Virus record (IMG/VR): IMGVR_UViG_3300045988_117314
Span: 1 to 64,000 of that record
Direction: 5' to 3' (one strand)
Length of the DNA: 64,000 nucleotides
Source of the DNA: a virus
The notes under the pieces: model-generated
Seen by the model: the letters and a program-made list of their open reading frames with translations, nothing else
Database searches by the model: none
What the model was told of the DNA's origin: nothing
Program-made: the position numbers and the translations under genes
In this document: positions 945 to 57,424 of the stretch, one piece after another
Position numbering within the stretch: position 1 is the stretch's first letter
Layout of the letters: the number at the start of each line of letters is the position of its first letter

Positions 945-976
945 AAGTGCTCCCGTCTGCGAAGATCGGAGCACTT
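945..976 (+). other. perfect 9-bp stem hairpin (AAGTGCTCC/GGAGCACTT) with 14-nt loop CGTCTGCGAAGATC
   Basis: Inverted repeat read directly. Loop core GTCTGCGAAGAT (955-966) is identical to the loop of the terminator hairpin at 5816-5848. Followed by GCTTTAT, a weak U-tract. Confidence 0.5.
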
Positions 977-1002
977 GCTTTATGGGATTCATGGTGCGGT
1001 AG

Positions 1003-1029
1003 GTCGGTTCGATTCCGGCGATCTCACAC
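1003..1029 (+). ncRNA. tRNA-like 3' element 1: T-arm-like GTCGG-TTCGATT-CCGGC plus acceptor-3'-like tail GATCTCACACA; no canonical cloverleaf found upstream
   Basis: GGTTCGATTCC T-loop signature on the + strand. A manual fold fails to find matching acceptor-5', D or anticodon arms within 70-95 nt. Paralogous to the element at 1867-1893. Confidence 0.3.
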
Positions 1030-1057
1030 AACATTAAAAACAAAGGAGGAAAGAAAA

Positions 1058-1405
1058 ATGAAAGACGGAATTGTATTACACCCAGAGTATGGAGTTAATC
1101 CATCCATAGAAATATGTATAGTATGCGGTGAAGAGATGGGGATTGCTTTATTAGGAAATGGGATTAAAGGGCAGGCGCCGCATCATATATGCACGGGAGA
1201 AATATGTGACAATTGCAAAAAGATAATAGACGAAGGAGGTTGTTTTATTATCGAAGTCGAGGATGGATCAGATCAAAAGAATCCGTATCGTACAGGGAGA
1301 TATTGCGCGATAAAGAAAGAAGCAGCAAAGAAAATACTTGGACAGGAACATAGTGTTGTGTACATGGAAAAGTCTGCGTACAGTCAAATAATACCACAAA
1401 AATAA
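1058..1405 (+). CDS. Cys-rich small protein (115 aa), possible zinc-binding
   Basis: ATG at 1058 preceded by SD AAAGGAGGA (1042-1050). Motifs CIVCGEE...HHICTGEICDNCKK. The ORF-track start at 947 would span the tRNA-like element, so the downstream ATG is preferred. Confidence 0.55.
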   Translation: MKDGIVLHPEYGVNPSIEICIVCGEEMGIALLGNGIKGQAPHHICTGEICDNCKKIIDEGGCFIIEVEDGSDQKNPYRTGRYCAIKKEAAKKILGQEHSVVYMEKSAYSQIIPQK

Positions 1406-1413
1406 AGAAAGAT

Positions 1414-1737
1414 ATGTTTACAAAAGAAGAGCGATTATTCATTTGGAAAAAGGTATATGAGAATATCGAAAGGTTAGAGGATGGGGATTATATATGCGTC
1501 ATGTTGAGAAATATAGTATTTAAGTTTTTCAGTACTCCTAAAAAAATAGAATCCTTTTATGGGCTATATTTAGATAAAATGGTGAAAACATATTTCCCGG
1601 AATTGGAGGAAAAGAAAAGTATGGCTACAGAACCAGAAGAAGAATGGAGGATATATGGATGGTTTGGCTGTATTAGTCCAGAAACGAAGGAGGTGAGGCT
1701 AAATATCATAAAAGACATTATAAAAGAATTAGAATAG
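1414..1737 (+). CDS. hypothetical protein (107 aa)
   Basis: ATG 1414; compact spacing after the preceding gene. Confidence 0.5.
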   Translation: MFTKEERLFIWKKVYENIERLEDGDYICVMLRNIVFKFFSTPKKIESFYGLYLDKMVKTYFPELEEKKSMATEPEEEWRIYGWFGCISPETKEVRLNIIKDIIKELE

Positions 1738-1866
1738 TATTTTTGTTAATCTATTTTATTCATCAAATTAAGTTTTGGGTTTTGGCATGTCGGTTCGTGA
1801 GAATAGGCATGTCTATTTCTGTATCATAGAGGGGGTGACGCGGCGTGCCGGTATGTATGTGCCGGT

Positions 1867-1893
1867 CCTGGTTCGATTCTGGGTATCTCACAA
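1867..1893 (+). ncRNA. tRNA-like 3' element 2: CCTGG-TTCGATT-CTGGG plus tail TATCTCACAAAC; preceded by a GC-rich segment with direct repeats GTGCCGG x2 and GGCATGTC x2
   Basis: Shares GGTTCGATTCYGG..ATCTCACA with element 1. About 97 nt back to a possible GTGAGA acceptor-5' partner (1797-1802), which is too long for a standard tRNA. Fold not canonical. Confidence 0.3.
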
Positions 1894-1911
1894 ACAATAA
1901 AGCATAATCAT

Positions 1912-2160
1912 ATGGAAGTAATAACATTTGGTCCAGACATGGATCTATCTTCTAAAGAAGTAGGAGATGTATTTAGATTAAAATTGTATGGCATAGAGTA
2001 TGATGTCAAAGTAGTTGGTGACGAAGAAGATCTTGATATGTCTTGCAAAGATTGCGTCTTCTTTAACAACACCGGACGGTGTTCACTCTCAGAATCGCAA
2101 GACTGGTGCCTAAAAAAGCAAGTTATTTACTGTAAAATAAGACATGATGGAAGAATTTAA
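1912..2160 (+). CDS. small Cys-rich protein, paralog of 209..490 and 28842..29051
   Basis: ATG 1912, 19 nt after tRNA-like element 2. Motif SCKDCVFFNNTGRCS aligns with CEGCIFND(C/H). Confidence 0.5.
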   Translation: MEVITFGPDMDLSSKEVGDVFRLKLYGIEYDVKVVGDEEDLDMSCKDCVFFNNTGRCSLSESQDWCLKKQVIYCKIRHDGRI

Positions 2161-2335
2161 TACGAAAGACGCCAATTTCTTGTGGTGTCAAATTGGTAGG
2201 ATTGACGGGGGGATAGAAACTCTGAACCGTATCGGAGGAGAGATGCCGGAAATCATAGCCGGAGTGCTAAAAAGAATAAGAGACGATATAGATAAGTTTG
2301 TAGACAATAAAACGAAAAATTATGAGAATATATAG
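2144..2335 (+). CDS. hypothetical protein (63 aa)
   Basis: ORF overlaps the upstream stop; same strand as its neighbours. Confidence 0.35.
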   Translation: MMEEFNTKDANFLWCQIGRIDGGIETLNRIGGEMPEIIAGVLKRIRDDIDKFVDNKTKNYENI

Positions 2336-2522
2336 GAATGATATTATAAAGGCGTCAGCGATAAGCACAGACGACGACAGAGGTTTGTTGTTGTGTTCAA
2401 TAACAGATTCAGGGTTTACGTCTATAGCGAGCGTGATATCGGCTGTTAAAAACAAGCTACCAAACAAAGATCATAAGAAGATGGTGTTTGAAATCTTGAA
2501 TGATACGAAAAAAGAGTACTGA
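2322..2522 (+). CDS. hypothetical protein (66 aa)
   Basis: ORF in frame-consistent tight packing. Confidence 0.3.
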   Translation: MRIYRNDIIKASAISTDDDRGLLLCSITDSGFTSIASVISAVKNKLPNKDHKKMVFEILNDTKKEY

Positions 2523-2639
2523 CGATATAACAATTGTGGGACAAAAGTATTGTAATAAAGAGCAGAAAACAATATGTTTATGTAATGTTAGTTTTTTCAT
2601 TTTTATTGAAAGGAGTGCCGGCCTGTGAAGGTATGCGCT

Positions 2640-2660
2640 CTTTGTATTTGTATAATGAAT
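2640..2660 (+). promoter_or_regulatory. candidate sigma70-type -10 element TATAAT (2651-2656) with TG immediately upstream
   Basis: TTGTATAAT lies 19 nt upstream of ATG 2675, in a ~150-bp AT-rich gap. There is no good -35 hexamer. Confidence 0.25.
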
Positions 2661-2674
2661 AGAACGATAATAAT

Positions 2675-2929
2675 ATGACAGATAATAACATAGATGTGAA
2701 TATCGTACCTATAAGGAATGGTGCGAAACGAGTTGTGGTATCATATTACCATTATTCACGCAAGGATAAAAATCATATGAGTTCTCAAACGGATTACGTG
2801 TGGGAAACAAAGAATGAAGAAATGTTTAAATACTTTGAGGCCAGGAGGACAAAAGTATTTTATAGTCAGATTCGTGCCATGTGTAGATTCTATGGCAAGA
2901 AAAATGTACGTAAATACAAAAAGTTATGA
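2675..2929 (+). CDS. hypothetical protein (84 aa)
   Basis: ATG 2675; ATGA overlap with the next gene at 2926-2929. Confidence 0.45.
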   Translation: MTDNNIDVNIVPIRNGAKRVVVSYYHYSRKDKNHMSSQTDYVWETKNEEMFKYFEARRTKVFYSQIRAMCRFYGKKNVRKYKKL

Positions 2930-3735
2930 TATTAAAAACGACAACCAACGAATTTTGTTTTATTAACGTAAGTTTTTATGAAACAGTAGCAGACCCGCGT
3001 CATTTCTTTTCACAGGAATATGATGAGATGCCGGAATATGAGGATGAATCAGATTTTGATTTTGATTCTTATTGTAATGCGTTCATGCCTTATGTGCAAG
3101 AATGGGCGGACAAGGTTAAAGAACGTCTTTTAGTATATGGTGTAAAGGATATAAAGGTAACATCAGTCGGACGGCCAAGAGAGTATAACTATGGTACTGA
3201 TTGGATGGAGGTAGAGGTGGAGTTCTGTGATGGGTGGCGACAGGCGATATTATCCAACATTGGTAAGATAATCAATGATGATAGGTGTAGAAAATATGCT
3301 GAGGTAAATTATAAATCAGTTCAGGGTTACATATTTTTCGGGCCTGAAGATCTAAAGGAGTTTGAGAAAGAAATAATAGAAAAGAATCCAAATTCAGGAT
3401 ATGATCCAGCAGTGCTATTAAATATGTATCTAACTTTGGCTTTTGTAAAAGAATTTGGGTTCGTAGCTGAAGATGCGTGGCATGATGTAGTAGCGGAAGC
3501 CTTTCATTATCTACAATATCATAATTTCGCAACAACGGAAACGTTTATACCGGAAGGTTCGGAGTATTTATTCAATGACGTGCATACGGCAGAAGCCGAC
3601 GAATTATATCATCATGTCCTGGATAAATTCGGATGGGCGTGGCGTGATCCGAAATATAAGTCAGAAACAGAATTATGCGCAATGTTAAAATGGGCAAAAG
3701 AAAAAGGCTTGACCATTGAAGAGTTAAGTATTTAA
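2926..3735 (+). CDS. hypothetical protein (269 aa), acidic N-terminal region
   Basis: Long ORF, ATG 2926, coupled to the upstream gene. Confidence 0.6.
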   Translation: MILKTTTNEFCFINVSFYETVADPRHFFSQEYDEMPEYEDESDFDFDSYCNAFMPYVQEWADKVKERLLVYGVKDIKVTSVGRPREYNYGTDWMEVEVEFCDGWRQAILSNIGKIINDDRCRKYAEVNYKSVQGYIFFGPEDLKEFEKEIIEKNPNSGYDPAVLLNMYLTLAFVKEFGFVAEDAWHDVVAEAFHYLQYHNFATTETFIPEGSEYLFNDVHTAEADELYHHVLDKFGWAWRDPKYKSETELCAMLKWAKEKGLTIEELSI

Positions 3736-3798
3736 TTGTTAAACATAAGGCAGTAGTGGTGCGTGAGTATAGGTGCTGCCGTTAAAATATTTTATAAG

Positions 3799-4047
3799 AT
3801 GAAAAAAGAAGAGATTCAAACTATTTTATACACAATCAAAGAAGGAGACAGTATTAAGATCAAAGTACAAGACAAAAGTGAAGAGATAAGATTGCGGGAT
3901 CATGTAAGAAGAGTACAGAAATACGGATACAGGTTTTGTTTGTCTCATTTACATGATGGAATTTTCTATCTGGAGAAGTTGGAAGAGGGAGATAAAGATA
4001 AATACTATAGAGTAATAAACAGAGGAAATGGAAAGACCGGAGTATAA
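3799..4047 (+). CDS. hypothetical protein (82 aa)
   Basis: The ORF-track start at 3763 is GTG. The first ATG (3799, MKKEEIQ...) is preferred. Confidence 0.45.
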   Translation: MKKEEIQTILYTIKEGDSIKIKVQDKSEEIRLRDHVRRVQKYGYRFCLSHLHDGIFYLEKLEEGDKDKYYRVINRGNGKTGV

Positions 4048-4321
4048 TAAGCTACGTAAAATGGCTAAGACTACTCCAGGTCTGATAGTGGACGAGGCGC
4101 AAAACATGATGCGTGTATCGCTATACGATAATGGGGAACTTAAGAAGGTGGTAGTGGTAATGAAATGCGATTCTTTTTTACAGTCAAAAAGTAACATAGA
4201 AAAGATAATGTTATTATCATCTTCTATAGAAGATAGAAAAAACAAAGAAAAAAATAAAACAAAATCAGAAAATGAACAGAATAACAAAAATAAGAGAAGA
4301 GATAGGAGGAAAACAGGTTGA
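4028..4321 (+). CDS. hypothetical protein with Lys/Asn-rich C-terminal tail
   Basis: ATG 4028 with SD AGAGGA. Same orientation as the whole module. Confidence 0.35.
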   Translation: MERPEYNKLRKMAKTTPGLIVDEAQNMMRVSLYDNGELKKVVVVMKCDSFLQSKSNIEKIMLLSSSIEDRKNKEKNKTKSENEQNNKNKRRDRRKTG

Positions 4322-4655
4322 TTTAACCTTTTACGGGCGCTTTTGCAGCCTTATCGAAGGTGATAGGAAGATAATACTAAGGGCGATAAAAAACGGTCGT
4401 AAAAAAGGCGTAATCGGAGCCATTCAGCCTGGGAGACATGATAGAATTTGGACCACATGGTCTATTGCTTTTGATGATCTGAAGGTAGGGGATACAGTAG
4501 AGTTCACTACATCTGGAAAATATAATCCCGGATTTCATACTACGGAGACGTATGTAGGATGTGTAGAATGGATAAAAGGATCGGAATGTGCGATAAAAAC
4601 CGGCAATGGAATGGCGGTAGTATTAATTAAACACGTGGAAAGGGTGGTAAAATGA
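4272..4655 (+). CDS. hypothetical protein (127 aa)
   Basis: ATG 4272; ATGA coupling to the next gene at 4652. Confidence 0.5.
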   Translation: MNRITKIREEIGGKQVDLTFYGRFCSLIEGDRKIILRAIKNGRKKGVIGAIQPGRHDRIWTTWSIAFDDLKVGDTVEFTTSGKYNPGFHTTETYVGCVEWIKGSECAIKTGNGMAVVLIKHVERVVK

Positions 4656-4936
4656 TGGATTTAAGAATGTTTATAGACCTATTTCAGGAGATTGAGGTAG
4701 AGAACTTGTTTAAAGCGTTAGATTTATGTATGGAATATGCAAGATTAGATTTACATGTGTTTAATATAGGAGCTCATGTAACATGTTCATACAGTAATGA
4801 TCTTGAATCGCTTTCACAGGCAGAAGGTTGTAATGTGAATATGATAATAGAGGTACCCTACTTGTTTGAAGCATTTATGGAATACGCTTCACCGGAAATG
4901 AAGTTGTATTATGAAAAACTAACAGAGACAGTATAA
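4652..4936 (+). CDS. hypothetical protein (94 aa)
   Basis: ATG 4652 overlapping the upstream stop. Confidence 0.5.
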   Translation: MMDLRMFIDLFQEIEVENLFKALDLCMEYARLDLHVFNIGAHVTCSYSNDLESLSQAEGCNVNMIIEVPYLFEAFMEYASPEMKLYYEKLTETV

Positions 4937-4937
4937 T

Positions 4938-5420
4938 ATGAAAGAGGAAGTAGAACGGATAAAGAGGTTGGTTGGCATAGATCATAATAGATGGGAGCAA
5001 CCTTGTACATGTGATAAATGCAAGAATATGTGTAAGGTCCCTTGTATTGGTACGCCAAAAGACATAGAGGCTATCATAGATGCCGGATACGCTGACAGGT
5101 TAAAAGAAACAATGTGGATGGTCGGGTATCTTGCAGTGAAAGAAAAACCAATAGCGATGATCCAGCCAACAGAAAAAGACGGGTGGTGCGCATTCCGCCA
5201 GCCGGACGGTCTCTGCGAGCTGCATGACCGCGGACTAAAGCCGACTGAAGGAGTTCTGGCTTCTTGCAAGGTGGTTGAAGAAGACGATATTCCAACATAC
5301 GAGACATCCGTACTTAGAGCGGTAGCCCACGAGTGGGTTAAGGTAGAGAACTTCGCAACTACAATGAGGGTCGTTTTTAAATACTTGCATTACAATGAAC
5401 GTAGAGAACAAGATAAATAA
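4938..5420 (+). CDS. hypothetical Cys-containing protein (160 aa)
   Basis: ATG 4938. CTCDKCKNMCKVPC motif. Contains a GC-rich patch (about 5190-5290). Confidence 0.55.
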   Translation: MKEEVERIKRLVGIDHNRWEQPCTCDKCKNMCKVPCIGTPKDIEAIIDAGYADRLKETMWMVGYLAVKEKPIAMIQPTEKDGWCAFRQPDGLCELHDRGLKPTEGVLASCKVVEEDDIPTYETSVLRAVAHEWVKVENFATTMRVVFKYLHYNERREQDK

Positions 5421-5799
5421 GATAGCTAAGATCTTAAAAGAAAAAGGATTTATTGTGTATAAGAAAGGCGGGAAGGAACCAGGTGTGTTTTACGCCAAAG
5501 AAGGTGACAGCCGGATAGGATTCGTTTATCCCAACAACGGATATATATACGACAGGATAAAGATGTGGTCTTTTTCAAGGATATATAAACCACATAAGAA
5601 AACCGGATCTTCGTGTTTAATGTGTGTCAGCGACGAATTTACGATAGAGAATGCGATTAAGAACATAGAGGATAGACTGTGGGTGAATTATATAAAAGAC
5701 GATAACAGAAAACGACCAGAAGAATATAAAAATATAAGAGAATTTGTTGGTAGCTTCACTAAATTCTACAACTCTGTAGAATTAGTTGAAGTTAAGTAG
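5395..5799 (+). CDS. hypothetical protein (134 aa)
   Basis: ATG 5395; followed by a terminator hairpin and T-run. Confidence 0.55.
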   Translation: MNVENKINKIAKILKEKGFIVYKKGGKEPGVFYAKEGDSRIGFVYPNNGYIYDRIKMWSFSRIYKPHKKTGSSCLMCVSDEFTIENAIKNIEDRLWVNYIKDDNRKRPEEYKNIREFVGSFTKFYNSVELVEVK

Positions 5800-5815
5800 T
5801 TTTCCATGCAAGTTA

Positions 5816-5857
5816 GTTGCCGGCACTGGTCTGCGAAGATAGGTGTCGTTTTTTTTT
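5816..5857 (+). terminator. intrinsic terminator: stem CGGCAC(T)/(G)GTGTCG, 14-nt loop GGTCTGCGAAGATA, then T9
   Basis: Hairpin plus TTTTTTTTT at 5849-5857, directly after the stop of 5395..5799. The loop shares GTCTGCGAAGAT with the hairpin at 945-976. Confidence 0.6.
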
Positions 5858-5878: not shown

Positions 5879-6406
5879 ATGGAGAAAATAAGAATAGAAG
5901 TAGACAAAGTGATATTATACTATATGGATCGGGTAGACCCTGACGGGAACCTATACCGGTTCTATGTATATAAAGATATGGCATCTGAAATAGAATACTT
6001 TTGTACGGAAGAGGCAGGTAATATGACTATACCAATCGGAGAAGGAAAGTATATTGAAATCGTGCCAAGGGAAATAGTGAAAATACCAGTAAGGGGATAC
6101 AGAAGGCTTGCTGGAAAATGGAATTGTGAGACATGTTATGGGAAAGGCTGGTATAGGCTTTTTAATTATTTCAAATACAAGCCAGACATATGTTATATTA
6201 AAAACATAGGGCGTGATAAAAATGGAAACACAAGATATGAAATATCATTATTTAATGCCACTATGAATGTGACAAGGTATTTTAATTTGTGGAGAATGAA
6301 GCCAGGAAAGCATGTTATGATAACAAACGAGTACGGAGTCTTGGATATTATAAAAGAAAAATTCGATAACATAAATATAGTGGAATATAGTGGAATATGG
6401 ATATAA
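5879..6406 (+). CDS. hypothetical protein (175 aa)
   Basis: The ORF-track start at 5843 is GTG. ATG 5879 is preceded by SD GGAAGGAGG. Confidence 0.55.
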   Translation: MEKIRIEVDKVILYYMDRVDPDGNLYRFYVYKDMASEIEYFCTEEAGNMTIPIGEGKYIEIVPREIVKIPVRGYRRLAGKWNCETCYGKGWYRLFNYFKYKPDICYIKNIGRDKNGNTRYEISLFNATMNVTRYFNLWRMKPGKHVMITNEYGVLDIIKEKFDNINIVEYSGIWI

Positions 6407-13435: not shown

Positions 13436-14167
13436 ATGGAACAGAGAACAGCAACAATTCCGTTTGATTTAGAAACGGCGAAAAAAATAAACATAGGGGA
13501 AATAGCAGGTCGTATTGTGACAGAGAAAGGACAAAATAGAGCAGAAATCGTATATGAAGACAATTCGTCAAATTGTCCGTTATTGGTTGTAATTCATTCG
13601 ATTTCTGTATCGGCAGACTGGTTTTCTGCTACAGGAAAAGCACTTAGCAGCGAAAATCGCCTCCTTCTTGAAGTCCCGGAATATACTACATTTAAAGATG
13701 GAGATGTGTTAAGCAACGAAGAAGGAAATTTTATTTTTATTTTAAATACTAATGGGAAATATTTAACATCTTTGTATGCGAGTCTTGCAGCGGGAACAAG
13801 TCTTAATATATCGGATAATATTGCTGCACACGAAAACCACATAGAATGTTATAGACTTGCAACAGATTCGGAAAAACAGAGGATGATTAAAGCGTTAAAG
13901 AAAAGCGAAAATCCTAAAGCAAAAGAATATCTGAAACGCTTCTTCGGGATTAAAGAAGAGCCGAAATATGAGTTTAAGCCGTTTGATAAAGTGCTGGTAA
14001 GAAAAGAAGGAAATAAAAAATGGAATATCAGTTTGTTTGCAAGGGAAATTGTGGACGATTATAATAGATTGCCTTATAAGTACGAATGTTCTAATGGAAC
14101 ATTATGGGATTATTGTATTCATTTTGAGGGTAACGAGCATCTTTTAGGAACTGATGAGGCGCTTTAA
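13436..14167 (+). CDS. hypothetical protein, tandem paralog B
   Basis: ATG 13436. Shares conserved blocks with 12688..13431, including the same C-terminal GNEHLLGT. Confidence 0.55.
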   Translation: MEQRTATIPFDLETAKKINIGEIAGRIVTEKGQNRAEIVYEDNSSNCPLLVVIHSISVSADWFSATGKALSSENRLLLEVPEYTTFKDGDVLSNEEGNFIFILNTNGKYLTSLYASLAAGTSLNISDNIAAHENHIECYRLATDSEKQRMIKALKKSENPKAKEYLKRFFGIKEEPKYEFKPFDKVLVRKEGNKKWNISLFAREIVDDYNRLPYKYECSNGTLWDYCIHFEGNEHLLGTDEAL

Positions 14168-15283: not shown

Positions 15284-15946
15284 ATGAATAATTTTGTAAT
15301 AGATACTCCAGATAATTTCTGGCAAATAAGATGGCTTGACAAGTATATGGAAGGCCACAAAGGATTCATAGCTGGTGGATGTTTTAAAAATATCCTTTCC
15401 GGAGAAAGAGTAAAAGACATTGATATTTTCTTTGAAAGTGAAAGCGATTTTCAGGAGGCTATTGATTCGTTCAATGATGAAAAACATCAGAAAGAAGGAT
15501 GGAAATTTAAGTACAGAAATGAGAAGGTATGTGCGTTCCAGAAAGAGGGAGAAAAGGTATGGATAGAGTTCATAGAGTCAGAGTTTGGAAAGCCGAAAGA
15601 GATTCTTAGGAGCTTCGATTTTACTGTGACAAAAATGGCTTACTATAAGGAGCCCAAATACGAAGAAAAAGAAGATGATTATTTTCCATTCTCATCTGCA
15701 AGTATAGTAGCATACGAGTACAAACTACTCTATCATGAGAAATTCTTCGAACATCTTCATATGAAGAGGCTGGTTATTGACGAAAATATCCCTTTTCCAG
15801 TAAGTACATGGGAGCGCTCATATCGGTATAAAGGATATGGTTACAATATGTGTAGGGAGACAAAGAAAAAACTTCTACAGGCTCTTAAAGGTGTAAACGT
15901 AGAGGAGGAAGATGTATCTTTGTACACTACTGGAGGATGGGATTAA
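15284..15946 (+). CDS. Pol-beta-superfamily nucleotidyltransferase resembling the head domain of class II CCA-adding enzyme / poly(A) polymerase
   Basis: Motifs GFIAGGCFKNILSGERVKDIDIFF (compare GGaVRDlLLG..vKDiDi) and LRSFDFTVTKMA (compare RRDFTINAMA). At 220 aa it is much shorter than full CCA enzymes, so the call is by recalled motif only. Confidence 0.45.
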   Translation: MNNFVIDTPDNFWQIRWLDKYMEGHKGFIAGGCFKNILSGERVKDIDIFFESESDFQEAIDSFNDEKHQKEGWKFKYRNEKVCAFQKEGEKVWIEFIESEFGKPKEILRSFDFTVTKMAYYKEPKYEEKEDDYFPFSSASIVAYEYKLLYHEKFFEHLHMKRLVIDENIPFPVSTWERSYRYKGYGYNMCRETKKKLLQALKGVNVEEEDVSLYTTGGWD

Positions 15947-22126: not shown

Positions 22127-22596
22127 TGATAAGAAGTCATGGCTTATGCCAGGCTTGCAGGAGCAAAGAGTTGACTCCGAAGAAAAAAAACAGAATTACA
22201 TCCATTAAAAACAGCAGCAAGAAGAAAAAGTTAGAGAACCCGGATTTATCCGGGTTTTTTCGTCTTATGTTGGAGGAGTTGAGTACTATTCGAATGTCTA
22301 TGACTGGTAAAGCTATTCATTTTCCTACAGTATGTAACGTCTGTCACATACTTCCGAAAAGGTTATATAAGTCGGTTGCCACTTGCAGGGATAATATAGT
22401 TTTCCTTCATGAATCAGAGCATACGGTATTCGACATGTATCTTGACCGGATGGAATTTGATAAACTTGAAACAGAATTTCCTTTTGTGTGGAAGTATGCG
22501 GTAAAGAAGGTGCTGGATATGGAAAGCAGGGGAATGATTAAAGAAAGAGGTAGATTAATTATTGAAATAATTGACAGATATGAGAAAACTTTATAA
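22072..22596 (+). CDS. zinc-ribbon protein with possible HNH-like C-terminal region
   Basis: ATG 22072. CERCG...CQAC, then CNVCHILPK...DNIVFLHESEH (H/N/H spacing). HNH assignment is tentative. Confidence 0.4.
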   Translation: MESKEKKLYVCERCGRKVMIRSHGLCQACRSKELTPKKKNRITSIKNSSKKKKLENPDLSGFFRLMLEELSTIRMSMTGKAIHFPTVCNVCHILPKRLYKSVATCRDNIVFLHESEHTVFDMYLDRMEFDKLETEFPFVWKYAVKKVLDMESRGMIKERGRLIIEIIDRYEKTL

Positions 22597-29053: not shown

Positions 29054-29767
29054 ATGTACATCAATTTCAGACAACTTGCAGCATCAGACATGACTCCTAA
29101 TGATCTGGCTAATCTTCTTGCTATAAGACAGAAGGATACGGTTATGATCGAAGCCATGCTGGAAAAAGATGCTGGGAGGTATATAGAGCTTGGCCTGGTT
29201 GAGAAATTAAAATCAGGCGTGATGAGATTGACCAACAAAGGAACGTCTTTTGTGAATTATATAGAGACACCGGAAATGACGGACGAGGTCCTGGAAACGT
29301 TGAAGATTATGATAGGAATGTACGAATCATATTCAAAAGATATAGGTGTCAGCAGAAAAGAAGCGGAATCCAGATTGTGTTGGTTTATGGGTAACACCTC
29401 ATTCAAGAAAGAGGTCATACTTCAGGTAACAGAATCTTATATAGCAGAATCAGGAGATTACACAATGAGCTTATGTAACTTCATATGGAAACCGCCTTCT
29501 CAGGCTTTCTCAGTCCATATGAACCTCAAAAACTCAAAGCTCTTTGACTTAATAGCTGAAAAATTTAAGATCGCTACCGAACCTTATTTGGAGTCTAAGA
29601 AGAATAAGGAAATGGATTGGTTGTTTGCCGTATCTAAATTGCCTACGCCGCCAGCTAAAGGCAATCCGGATTATTTGTTTACCGGAAGTTCTGAAACAGA
29701 CAAAGAGCGATTGAAAAACATAAAAACGTATTTGTTTAACAAAATTAGAAAGCAATGGAAAAAGTAA
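29054..29767 (+). CDS. hypothetical protein (237 aa)
   Basis: ATG 29054. Confidence 0.5.
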   Translation: MYINFRQLAASDMTPNDLANLLAIRQKDTVMIEAMLEKDAGRYIELGLVEKLKSGVMRLTNKGTSFVNYIETPEMTDEVLETLKIMIGMYESYSKDIGVSRKEAESRLCWFMGNTSFKKEVILQVTESYIAESGDYTMSLCNFIWKPPSQAFSVHMNLKNSKLFDLIAEKFKIATEPYLESKKNKEMDWLFAVSKLPTPPAKGNPDYLFTGSSETDKERLKNIKTYLFNKIRKQWKK

Positions 29768-42114: not shown

Positions 42115-42156
42115 AAACTTAGGTAATTATATACCTTTTTTTCATAACAAAAGAAA

Positions 42157-42188
42157 CCGGTTCTCTATCATCTCTGACTGAGGACCGG
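42157..42188. terminator. hairpin between convergent genes (CCGGTTCTC / GAGGACCGG, 14-nt loop); candidate bidirectional terminator
   Basis: Inverted repeat with one mismatch, flanked by TTTTTTT (42136-42143) and an A/T-rich tract. Located between the stop of 41626..42114 (+) and the stop of 42326..48739 (-). Confidence 0.45.
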
Positions 42189-42325
42189 TAAGAAAACAAT
42201 TTCAGAAAAAATTAAACCTACATAATCTTTCAAGTAAGAACAAAAAACGTACAATCTACTCTTTGACGATGCTAATATAGCATATTGGAATCATACAAAA
42301 ACAATGCAAGTCCGATATTCTTCGT

Positions 42326-48739: not shown

Positions 48740-48858
48740 GATAAAACATTTTTGTTATGAGACAAAGGTAGTTAAAAATAAAGCATATCATAAAAAATAA
48801 AGCCACCTAACTTCTCAGTCTGATGGCTTAAAAATAATATGAAAAAAAAATTATAATC

Positions 48859-57202: not shown

Positions 57203-57356
57203 TTCCTACTGTTATTAGTTACGTTCGGTTCTTACTTTTTCCTTATTTCCATAATCCCTTCCTGAAACTAATATTGCAAACTTAACAAAAATAATTCATA
57301 AACAATGAAAATCTAACTTTTCTTGTATGTTATTGATATACGTGCATATATAAGAA

Positions 57357-57383
57357 AAGTGAGACTTTCACAAGCCTCACTTC
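57357..57383 (-). terminator. hairpin AAGTGAG-(12-nt loop)-CTCACTT followed on the - strand by CUUUUCUUAUAUAUG
   Basis: 7-bp inverted repeat 40 nt downstream of the stop of - gene 57425..59680. Confidence 0.45.
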
Positions 57384-57424
57384 CCAAATTATAACTATGA
57401 AAAAACTATATATATATACAAAAA

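Follow-up and report, generated by a model that had tools for sequence, protein, structure and literature searches.

Two hairpins in a 64-kb window (the whole 64,000-nucleotide stretch of viral DNA that was analysed) belong to a widespread family of RNA stem-loops, specific to phages, in which the tip is fixed and the stems are free. The 12-mer GTCTGCGAAGAT has just two exact matches in the window, one at 955-966 and one at 5829-5840 (both + strand), and, as the original prediction held, this identical core caps unrelated stems: at site 1 AAGTGCTCC pairs with GGAGCACTT, and at site 2 CGGCACT pairs with GGTGTCG, including two G·U pairs, followed by a run of nine T. Both hairpins had been described as having a 14-nt loop. 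The spacing of 14 nt between the outer arms stands at both sites, but the loop is not open: in RNAfold, GUCU pairs with AGAU (G·U, U-A, C-G, U-A) to give a 4-bp mini-helix capped by a GCGA tetraloop of the GNRA class, and a 1x1 mismatch lies between this helix and the outer stem (C954·C967 at site 1, G5828·A5841 at site 2). Rfam gave no match in the window at gathering thresholds and did not match the hairpins even with E relaxed to 10 or 1, and the family is absent from Rfam and from the full-text literature searched; on these searches, the hairpin is previously undescribed.

A fixed tip on free stems

Taken alone, a 12-mer repeated exactly within 64 kb of sequence is nothing unusual and not significant: 584 same-strand exact repeat pairs were observed where a Markov model expects ~300, and the GTCTGCGAAGAT pattern with two mismatches is not enriched in the window. 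Both facts favour a chance match, and within the window only the identical register at the tips of two hairpins speaks against it. The original prediction proposed searching the full genome and relatives for the tip in hairpin context, and took just two copies without loop conservation in relatives as the mark of coincidence; that search found many copies, and the tip is kept in relatives. At site 1, orthologs carry compensatory stem changes (GTG/CAC, ATG/CAT, ACG/CGT) while loop position 2 varies between C and A; at site 2, the loop alternates between GCGA and GTGA, and a stem G·U becomes G-C. Because relatives retain both sites, because other phages place the same or a one-base-variant tip on ~100 independent stem families, and because control patterns show no such hairpin capping, the shared tip is not a coincidence; we regard that reading as refuted by the unrelated stem families and the family counts against controls, and leave it virtually no probability.

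Across the family, the outer stem is 6-10 bp long and free in sequence. Between it and a 4-bp inner helix that begins with a G·U wobble and then a U-A pair there is usually a 1x1 mismatch, G·A more than any other and almost invariant in its 3' A; the tetraloop is G-Y-G-A. The total stem is 12-15 bp, and the consensus tip reads 5'-(G)GU-YY-GYGA-RR-AU(A)-3', with A nearly always directly 3' of it. With 28 distinct families compared, 95% of cells are paired and 12 of the 13 pairs vary at both positions, figures that describe the family and do not test it, since its members were picked for pairing and the pattern used to select them fixed the tip columns; the orthologs supply independent compensatory stem changes.

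In viral contigs, the same tip or its GTGA twin, GTCTGTGAAGAT, caps ~100 hairpin families with differing stems. In the first 120 viral matches, GTCTGCGAAGAT itself sits on 12 stem families unrelated to one another (12 of 51 context families), and the twin stands in hairpin contexts in 41 of 72 viral context families. By contrast, hairpin contexts were found for a one-base control with a GCAA loop in 2 of 79 context families, for a control with a G-C closing pair in 7 of 85, and in bacterial genomes in 2 of 116. As these one-base controls fall far below the natural tips, the tip is under specific selection: the loop must be G-Y-G-A, and the closing G·U is preferred over the more stable G-C. An unbiased scan for tetraloop hairpins in viral loci returned GTGA and GCGA as the top loops, with G...T tips dominant. 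Scoring with model R1 gave at least 150 matches in 100 viral loci and 4 in 100 bacterial loci, all four at the 12-mer used for fetching. The motif is restricted to phages, occurs in phages that differ greatly in size and type, and is found widely in gut phages. Together, these data strongly support the proposal that a conserved tip on unconserved stems reflects sequence-specific selection on the tip, and extend it far beyond two copies; the tip is presumably read specifically by something.

Copies, tRNA-like elements and genomic setting

Model R1 has nine matches in the window (eight good, one atypical), all intergenic; beyond sites 1 and 2, the six further good copies and a seventh, atypical one were not in the original prediction. 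Five family copies lie within the first 6 kb, among small unannotated ORFs, and two flank a giant virion gene. The best-scoring copy in the window, at 1784, is conserved in relatives. Structural scan and fold also back the hairpins at 2610, 48800 and 57352. The site 2 hairpin starts 22 nt past the stop of ORF 5395-5799 and its element ends 21 nt short of an ATG at 5879, while the copy at 42156 lies downstream of a 2137-aa virion-protein ORF, where two gene blocks converge. At site 1, the downstream T content is GCTTTAT alone. A TATAAT lies 7 nt downstream of the hairpin at 2610. The hairpin layout of csAssE-Sib is the same as that of the window. Other terminators in the window do not carry the family tip, and thus the tip is not required for termination.

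Table. Family hairpins and tRNA-like elements in the window.
Feature	Position	Strand	Anatomy	R1 (bits)	Basis
Hairpin, site 1	945..976	+	outer stem 945-953/968-976; inner helix 955-958/963-966; GCGA 959-962	34.1	sequence, fold
tRNA-like minihelix 1	983..1027	+	acceptor TGGGATT 983-989/GATCTCA 1020-1026; discriminator C1027; 13-nt linker; T-arm GTCGG-TTCGATT-CCGGC 1003-1019		sequence, acceptor/T-arm detector (length 44)
Hairpin	1784..1813	+	tip GTTCGTGAGAAT 1793-1804; G/A mismatch; 8-bp outer stem GGCATGTC/GGCATGTC	39	structural scan
tRNA-like element 2 (paralogue of element 1)	1832..1890	+	acceptor GGGGTG 1832-1837/TATCTC 1884-1889, then A1890; internal 7-8 bp hairpin; T-arm CCTGG-TTCGATT-CTGGG 1867-1883		sequence, ortholog covariation
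Hairpin	2610..2643	+	tip GCCTGTGAAGGT 2621-2632; 2x2 internal loop (CG/AT)	24.1
Hairpin	3749..3780	+	tip GTGCGTGAGTAT 3759-3770; G/A mismatch	25.6	fold; ortholog L063
Hairpin, site 2, with T9	5821..5857	+	outer stem 5821-5827/5842-5848; tip 5829-5840; T-run 5849-5857	37.3
Hairpin	42156..42189	-	tip GTCAGAGATGAT; A/A mismatch	21.8	fold
Hairpin	48800..48829	-	tip GACTGAGAAGTT 48809-48820; A/A mismatch; then T-rich TATTTTTTAT	36.8 (sequence in R1 training alignment)
Weaker family relative	57352..57387	-	perfect stem, no mismatch; cap GCTTGTGAAAGT (GUGA loop, G·U closure)	24.4

Two of the window's hairpins form modules with a tRNA-like element. Minihelix 1, absent from the original prediction, begins 6 nt past the site 1 hairpin and has neither a D arm nor an anticodon arm; its T-stem covaries in orthologs (GTCGG and GCTGG each pair with CCGGC), and its Rfam match is weak and limited to the T-arm. 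The T-stem of element 2 likewise covaries (CCTGG/CTGGG vs TCTGG/CCAGG), and the element gives a weak end-to-end match to Rfam tRNA-Sec at 10.8 bits against a threshold of 47. We rejected the reading of these elements as true tRNAs, as they consist of acceptor stem and T-arm only, ARAGORN finds 0 tRNAs in the window, and the Rfam scores are far below threshold.

The same association recurs among 98 families, which fall into two main downstream contexts. An ARAGORN tRNA lies downstream in 29 and an acceptor/T-arm tRNA-like element in 15 (~45% together), an association that comes in part from a scan requiring a T-arm and with which NGG-anchored scans free of that requirement agree; the spacer is 2-6 nt in 35 of these 44 families. 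A T-run alone follows in 39 (~40%). The hairpins are intergenic in 93 of the 98 families. In 61 families the ORFs on either side both run in the hairpin's direction, and in 1 both run against it. Copies with a T-run stand 21-74 nt past a same-strand stop codon in 18 of 34 cases, and tRNA-like modules 11-51 nt past a stop in 7 of 11. A good -7 promoter box, TAACTTTG, precedes the hairpin by 4-6 nt in LoVEphage-like Bacteroides phages; at locus L321, a long operon is opened by three hairpin-tRNA-like modules; and at locus L295, a mini tRNA-like scores weakly as mascRNA (31.3 bits).

Upstream of the hairpins, the sequence is AT-rich and unconserved, and no word is enriched across families. A boxA-like word, TGCTTTAGACAA, lies just upstream of site 1 and resembles rrn boxA; the boxA-like TGCTTTAGNCAA is confined to the site 1 family and one unrelated jumbo-phage family, and the window shows no enrichment of the boxA-like word. 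We found no protein family common to the motif-carrying loci. Pfam and PHROG, libraries in which short arginine-rich-motif proteins would go unnoticed, assign no function to the small ORFs nearby.

Likeness to known elements

Several known systems share individual features with the family. In mitochondrial tRNA punctuation and at MALAT1/mascRNA, a tRNA or tRNA-like element immediately 3' of a protective RNA structure lets RNase P make the upstream 3' end, as it would here; those systems, however, are eukaryotic or organellar, their protective element is a triple helix or is absent, and cleavage in the phages is our proposal. Theta (HDV-like) ribozymes are small structured RNAs tied to tRNA genes, found almost exclusively in gut phages and seldom in bacteria (PMC10879173), in all of which they resemble the family; the same paper makes no mention of the family hairpin. 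A theta ribozyme is nonetheless rejected: its nested P1/P2/P3/P4 double pseudoknot cleaves at the tRNA 3' end, whereas ours is a simple hairpin 5' of tRNAs with AT-rich, unconserved sequence upstream, and its outer arms pair together, which is incompatible with P4/J4-2/P2. RNase III sites also are hairpins with internal irregularity between small early genes, and they leave the upstream mRNA ending in a stabilising hairpin, but such substrates span ~20 bp, and a helix of only 12-15 bp with a sequence-specific tip falls short of about two turns of dsRNA; on helix length, this candidate does not fit.

What the hairpin may do

The reading we tentatively favour, with a little under an even chance of being right, is a transcript-boundary RNA hairpin that serves as a terminator or, after RNase P cleavage, as a 3' cap, and whose tip a putative factor would read. 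The hairpin would form in the transcript and mark its boundary, standing at the RNA 3' end or a few nt from it. Where a U-tract follows, as at site 2, the end would arise by intrinsic termination; elsewhere, host RNase P would cut at the 5' end of a tRNA or tRNA-like minihelix 2-6 nt downstream, a route proposed in the window for site 1 and the copy at 1784-1813. The residual tail would be too short for a 3' exonuclease to grip, so that the hairpin would serve the upstream RNA as a stabilising cap, and the fixed tip would most likely be the contact surface for a putative conserved protein or RNA partner. Two observations sit less easily with a cap: the LoVEphage-like -7 box suits the 5' end of a pre-tRNA leader, and tRNA arrays offer no obvious upstream RNA in need of one.

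That box is among the points in favour of a promoter-proximal 5' leader element, which would be the first transcript structure before tRNAs, tRNA-likes and operons and would aid pre-tRNA processing (for example by RNase P with CCA-less or degenerate substrates) or nut/boxB-like loading of antitermination on RNA polymerase. We consider this rather unlikely. The box occurs at this position in several families, and the L321 operon, the tight spacing to tRNA 5' ends and the five copies in the early-looking first 6 kb all fit; the copies at the 3' end of the giant virion gene and the ~40% of families with only a T-run, often at the distance past a stop typical of terminators, do not. Lambda boxB has a 5-bp stem and a GNRA-like pentaloop, is preceded by boxA and bound by N, and is limited to two copies in a genome, which follow early promoters. 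Like it, the family is a small GNRA-type hairpin closed by U-A, with several copies in early regions, a boxA-like word before site 1 that recurs in an unrelated jumbo-phage family, and a tip that is probably also read sequence-specifically. Unlike it, the family has many copies, some of them terminators themselves, with no upstream motif enriched across families, no general boxA and no recognisable N-like protein among neighbouring ORFs by Pfam and PHROG, which could overlook a short arginine-rich one. The nut/boxB structure proper we rejected, because the tip is a 4-bp helix plus tetraloop on a longer stem.

Alternatively, these could be ordinary intrinsic terminators or stability hairpins whose shared tip is a fast-folding or stable cap without a reading partner. 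Intrinsic terminators require no specific loop sequence, and GNRA tetraloops are common among them; the terminator layout (a hairpin, a U-tract within 0-2 nt, soon after a stop on the coding strand) describes site 2 and the 39 T-run families. However, about half of the family adjoins tRNAs and has no U-tract, and therefore the U-tract does not define the whole; host genomes and the phage's other terminators do not use the tip, and the loop is not free to vary, as the GCAA and G-C controls show. A precedent, C(UUCG)G hairpins in intercistronic regions of phage T4, was reportedly described by Tuerk and colleagues in 1988: one short cap recurs between phage genes on many unrelated stems, which its exceptional thermodynamic stability explains. 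In the present family, the favoured features (G·U over G-C, U-A loop closure, a mismatch under the inner helix, and GYGA over the equally good GNRA loop GCAA) are not the most stable, and half of the copies adjoin tRNAs, making this reading unlikely.

A DNA-level role seems very improbable, whether as a cruciform or single-stranded hairpin bound by protein, an N4-type hairpin promoter, or a site of recombination or nicking. In its favour, extrusion of inverted repeats in DNA is conceivable, the phage carries a giant virion protein, and N4 hairpin promoters with conserved loops are a precedent; N4 hairpins, however, have a 5-7 bp stem and a 3-nt loop, an anatomy that the family's longer stem and tetraloop do not share. 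The motif also spans phages of widely differing sizes and types. A double-stranded protein site, which the original prediction had allowed for, is disfavoured: only the sense strand conserves the G·U/G·T wobbles, which become C·A on the other (11 bits antisense against 34 sense), and orientation follows transcription (61 vs 1). The element probably acts as RNA.

Returning to the transcript-boundary hairpin, RNase P would cut at the hairpin-tRNA junctions, leaving the hairpin to protect the RNA 3' end, and a factor would bind its tip. It is possible, though doubtful, that gut phages thereby use a two-part punctuation, a factor-bound cap (GU-YY-GYGA-RR-AU) plus a tRNA or minihelix, by which RNase P would split early polycistrons and tRNA arrays, each upstream unit ending in a hairpin whose tip recruits a conserved putative partner. 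If so, the released hairpin RNAs may serve as abundant decoys.

Tip structure at the two sites of the window

The original prediction described two hairpins with different stems that share an identical 12-nt sequence within a 14-nt loop. GTCTGCGAAGAT does occur as an exact match at + strand positions 955-966 and 5829-5840, the only two copies in the window, and the inverted repeats that surround them are unrelated in sequence. The loop size, by contrast, was overstated: within those 14 nt, GUCU and AGAU form an inner helix capped by a GCGA tetraloop, and at both sites a 1x1 mismatch (C·C or G·A) sits between that helix and the outer stem. A 12-mer repeat is not significant alone in 64 kb of sequence, where 584 same-strand 12-mer repeat pairs were observed as compared to about 300 expected.

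Both sites are retained in many related contigs, in which the tip (inner helix plus tetraloop) varies little. The site-1 stem carries the compensatory pairs GTG/CAC, ATG/CAT and ACG/CGT, and the site-2 stem a G·U to G-C change; the tip itself changes at loop position 2 alone (C, U or A), apart from an occasional A for its first G, which turns the G·U into an A-U pair. Rfam 15 scans at gathering and permissive thresholds gave no match for the hairpin, full-text literature searches for the DNA and RNA forms of the 12-mer returned unrelated papers only, and topical searches of the searchable literature found no description of the motif.

Hairpins and tRNA-like elements, in window coordinates unless a fetched locus (L321) is named
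Feature	Position	Strand	Basis
Site 1, outer stem	AAGTGCTCC 945-953 with GGAGCACTT 968-976	+	inverted repeat
Site 2, outer stem	CGGCACT 5821-5827 with GGTGTCG 5842-5848	+	inverted repeat
Site 2, T-run	T9, 5849-5857	+	sequence
Matches to model R1	943, 1781, 2609, 3747, 5817	+	covariance model
Matches to model R1	42155, 48797, 57352	-	covariance model
Weak match to model R1	56059	-	covariance model
tRNA-like element after site 1	983-1027	+	acceptor stem + T-arm
tRNA-like element after hairpin 1784-1813	1832-1890	+	acceptor stem + T-arm
51-nt mini tRNA-like, L321	starts about 1073; hairpin 1041-1068; T-arm 1100-1116		

Spread and sequence specificity of the tip

Scanning viral contigs with the 12-mer plus NGG returned, among the matches listed, orthologs of sites 1 and 2 plus the same tip on about a dozen unrelated hairpin stems, on contigs of 20 to 377 kb; the GTGA twin of the tip was commoner still than the GCGA form on viral-contig hairpins, again among the matches listed. 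When every tetraloop hairpin of the fetched viral loci was scanned without bias, GTGA and GCGA likewise came out as the leading loops, and GTCTGTGAAGAT, GTTCGTGAGRAT, GCCTGTGAAGGT and GTGTGTGAACAT were among the recurrent tips. The mismatch of this family is mostly G/A, its 3' nucleotide being A almost without exception, and some phages, among them L320, L321, L295 and L050, have three or four copies that differ in their stems. The hairpin scan also caught tandem GAGTGTGAATTTTGTTGGTAGGG units at L113 (about 13690-13790, - strand), which are unrelated to the family.

For tip variants searched in one scan format, we expressed specificity as the fraction of all context families, among up to 120 matches listed per pattern, in which the tip is flanked by a stem of 7 bp or more. 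In viral contigs this fraction was 41/72 for GTCTGTGAAGAT, 12/51 for GTCTGCGAAGAT, 7/85 for GTCTGTGAAGAC (G-C closure) and 2/79 for GTCTGCAAAGAT (GCAA loop), and GTCTGCGAAGAT scored 2/116 in bacterial genomes. R1, a covariance model of the family hairpin built from 28 families, matched at least 150 times in 100 viral loci versus 4 times in 100 bacterial loci that the same pattern had retrieved. The pairing statistics of the 28-family alignment are circular and descriptive only, because its members were picked for pairing and its tip columns were fixed by the selection pattern. The one-base control scans and R1 counts thus indicate that the tip requires a G-Y-G-A loop, with a wobble favoured over a stronger closing pair; tip selection is not explained by stability.

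The source of the window is a human gut phage of roughly 150 kb with about 90% identity to csAssE-Sib (OR575929), whose family-copy layout matches that of the window; the literature searched did not yield the name csAssE-Sib. R1 finds nine matches here: all five + strand copies lie in the first 6 kb, within a stretch of small unannotated + strand ORFs that covers the first 10 kb or so and is followed by replication genes, while two - strand copies flank the giant gene for a 2137-aa virion protein among the structural genes of the - strand (42-64 kb). Other terminator-like hairpins of the window (for example at 22225, 32217 and 49211) are without the family tip. Searches of the window found no tRNA genes, no Rfam matches at gathering thresholds, and no Pfam or PHROG function for the ORFs adjoining the hairpins.

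Genomic context and neighbouring tRNA-like elements

In 93 of 98 distinct families the hairpin is intergenic; the ORFs on its two sides both run in its direction in 61 families and both run against it in 1. The next downstream feature is an ARAGORN tRNA in 29/98 and an acceptor/T-arm tRNA-like element in 15/98, and 35 of these 44 have a spacer of 2-6 nt; a T-run is the sole downstream feature in 39/98; and among the 15 families left over, several hairpins stand before intron-containing tRNAs or tRNA-likes missed by the detectors. T-run copies usually lie 21-74 nt 3' of a stop codon, and tRNA-like modules 11-51 nt 3' of the stop in 7/11. The loop lies 10 to 18 nt from the 5' end of the tRNA, and a fixed ruler between the two was rejected for this variation.

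The two tRNA-like elements of the window, upstream of early ORFs and missed by tRNA finders, are paralogous minihelices that lack D and anticodon arms and have the acceptor strands GGGAU...AUCUC and the T-loop GGTTCGATTC in common; their T-stems covary among orthologs, and Rfam gave only sub-threshold tRNA or tmRNA-like matches. Many of the elements 3' of family hairpins, in other phages too, are not decoding tRNAs, some being 44-65 nt minihelices without D and anticodon arms and others having aberrant anticodon loops. In L245, L251, L271 and similar loci and in the L246 family, the hairpin precedes odd tRNAs: an 83-nt type with an 8-nt anticodon loop (ARAGORN anticodon 'tgcg'), and a tRNA-like with the anticodon loop CUUAAGA and hence a UUA anticodon, a possible ochre suppressor. 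At the hairpin-bearing locus L295, a mini tRNA-like (3910-3962, - strand) scored 31.3 bits with the Rfam mascRNA-menRNA model, whose threshold is 42.5. Locus L002 (545-944), from a phage closely related to that of the window, carries four tRNAs as hairpin-tRNA-tRNA-hairpin-tRNA-tRNA, about 8.7 kb upstream of site 1; T4 makes dimeric tRNA precursors, which this layout resembles.

The csAssE-Sib protein WOZ57379.1, annotated in GenBank as a poly(A) polymerase/CCA-adding enzyme, is the putative counterpart of window 15284-15946 by syntenic position and identical gene length, and Pfam gave no match at E ≤ 0.001 for the protein encoded in the window. The annotation, if valid for the window gene, would bear on the CCA-less tRNAs and tRNA-likes.

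A proposed boundary hairpin and alternative readings

The family hairpin most likely acts as RNA, because it is strand-specific, G·U-tolerant, transcription-oriented and intergenic. Both of its downstream contexts, a U-tract or the 5' end of a tRNA or tRNA-like, begin within a few nt of the hairpin, and RNase P substrates include acceptor/T-arm minihelices. Since a signal that makes 3' ends would come within a few nt in both contexts, we favour a hairpin that caps the 3' end at a transcript boundary: the end would be produced just after it, by termination at the U-tract or by RNase P at the tRNA or tRNA-like 5' end. Features more stable than those selected exist, which suggests that a putative partner reads the tip; neither Pfam and PHROG searches on neighbouring ORFs nor all-against-all BLAST of locus ORFs found a binding factor, and the BLAST of ORFs from 74 loci gave lineage-specific clusters only, with no protein common to hairpin loci.

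The main rival is a promoter-proximal role in the 5' leader. LoVEphage-like Bacteroides phages speak for it, carrying a TAACTTTG -7 box 4-6 nt 5' of the hairpin; a Bacteroides -7 box lies upstream in some families only, and a shared upstream promoter or boxA was ruled out by the lack of positional or k-mer enrichment across families. The 3' cap and 5' leader readings could both be true, in different contexts.

Several local observations concern these flanks. LoVEphage-like phages have long split or intron-containing tRNA genes (in LoVEphage MW660583, L330, an annotated 203-nt joined tRNA at 29237-29439), and the relatives L331, L448 and L348 carry the hairpin and TAACTTTG box immediately upstream of such tRNAs; in LoVEphage the locus has 35 nt in common with one family but lacks the family hairpin. 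A perfect TATAAT (2650-2655) lies 7 nt 3' of hairpin 2610-2643 and about 20 nt 5' of ATG 2675, and these positions suggest that the gap holds a terminator followed by a promoter. Directly 5' of hairpin 1, TGCTTTAGACAA (934-945) resembles the rrn boxA word TGCTCTTTAACAA; a boxA-like word (TGCTTTAGTCAA) stands at equal offset before the same tip in an unrelated jumbo-phage family (L020, about 2065-2078, and L446; 283-377 kb contigs). TGCTTTAGNCAA is not enriched in the window.

Known RNAs were also considered. The CPEB3 ribozyme contains UCUGCGAA, which prompted an HDV-like reading; this and a hammerhead ribozyme were rejected because the outer arms pair mutually and the element lies 5' of tRNAs. 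SRP RNA domain IV has a conserved GGAAGCA side, and mimicry of it was dropped as that side is absent; tetraloop self-docking was discarded since the CU:AG receptor within the same hairpin is not kept in variant tips. The nearest precedents are T4 C(UUCG)G hairpins, intrinsic terminators, lambda boxB, T7/SP82 RNase III sites, RNase P-made 3' ends (MALAT1/mascRNA, mitochondrial punctuation) and theta ribozymes; every one has one aspect in common with the family, which as a whole shows none of their defining features among those tested. We rate the family hairpin as a candidate cis-acting boundary hairpin, unusual in its sequence-specific tip and its coupling to tRNA-like elements.

If true, gut phages, among them crAss-size, LoVEphage-like and jumbo phages, whose gene expression is poorly understood, would have a very common and easily recognised RNA signal. 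Its tRNA-like processing signals would connect mRNA and tRNA maturation, and its putative RNA-binding partner would tell a GYGA loop apart from GCAA, and G·U closure from G-C, a one-base specificity that supplies mutant controls. The motif and R1 may be used on uncultured phage genomes to locate transcript boundaries and the tRNAs and tRNA-likes that tRNA finders miss.
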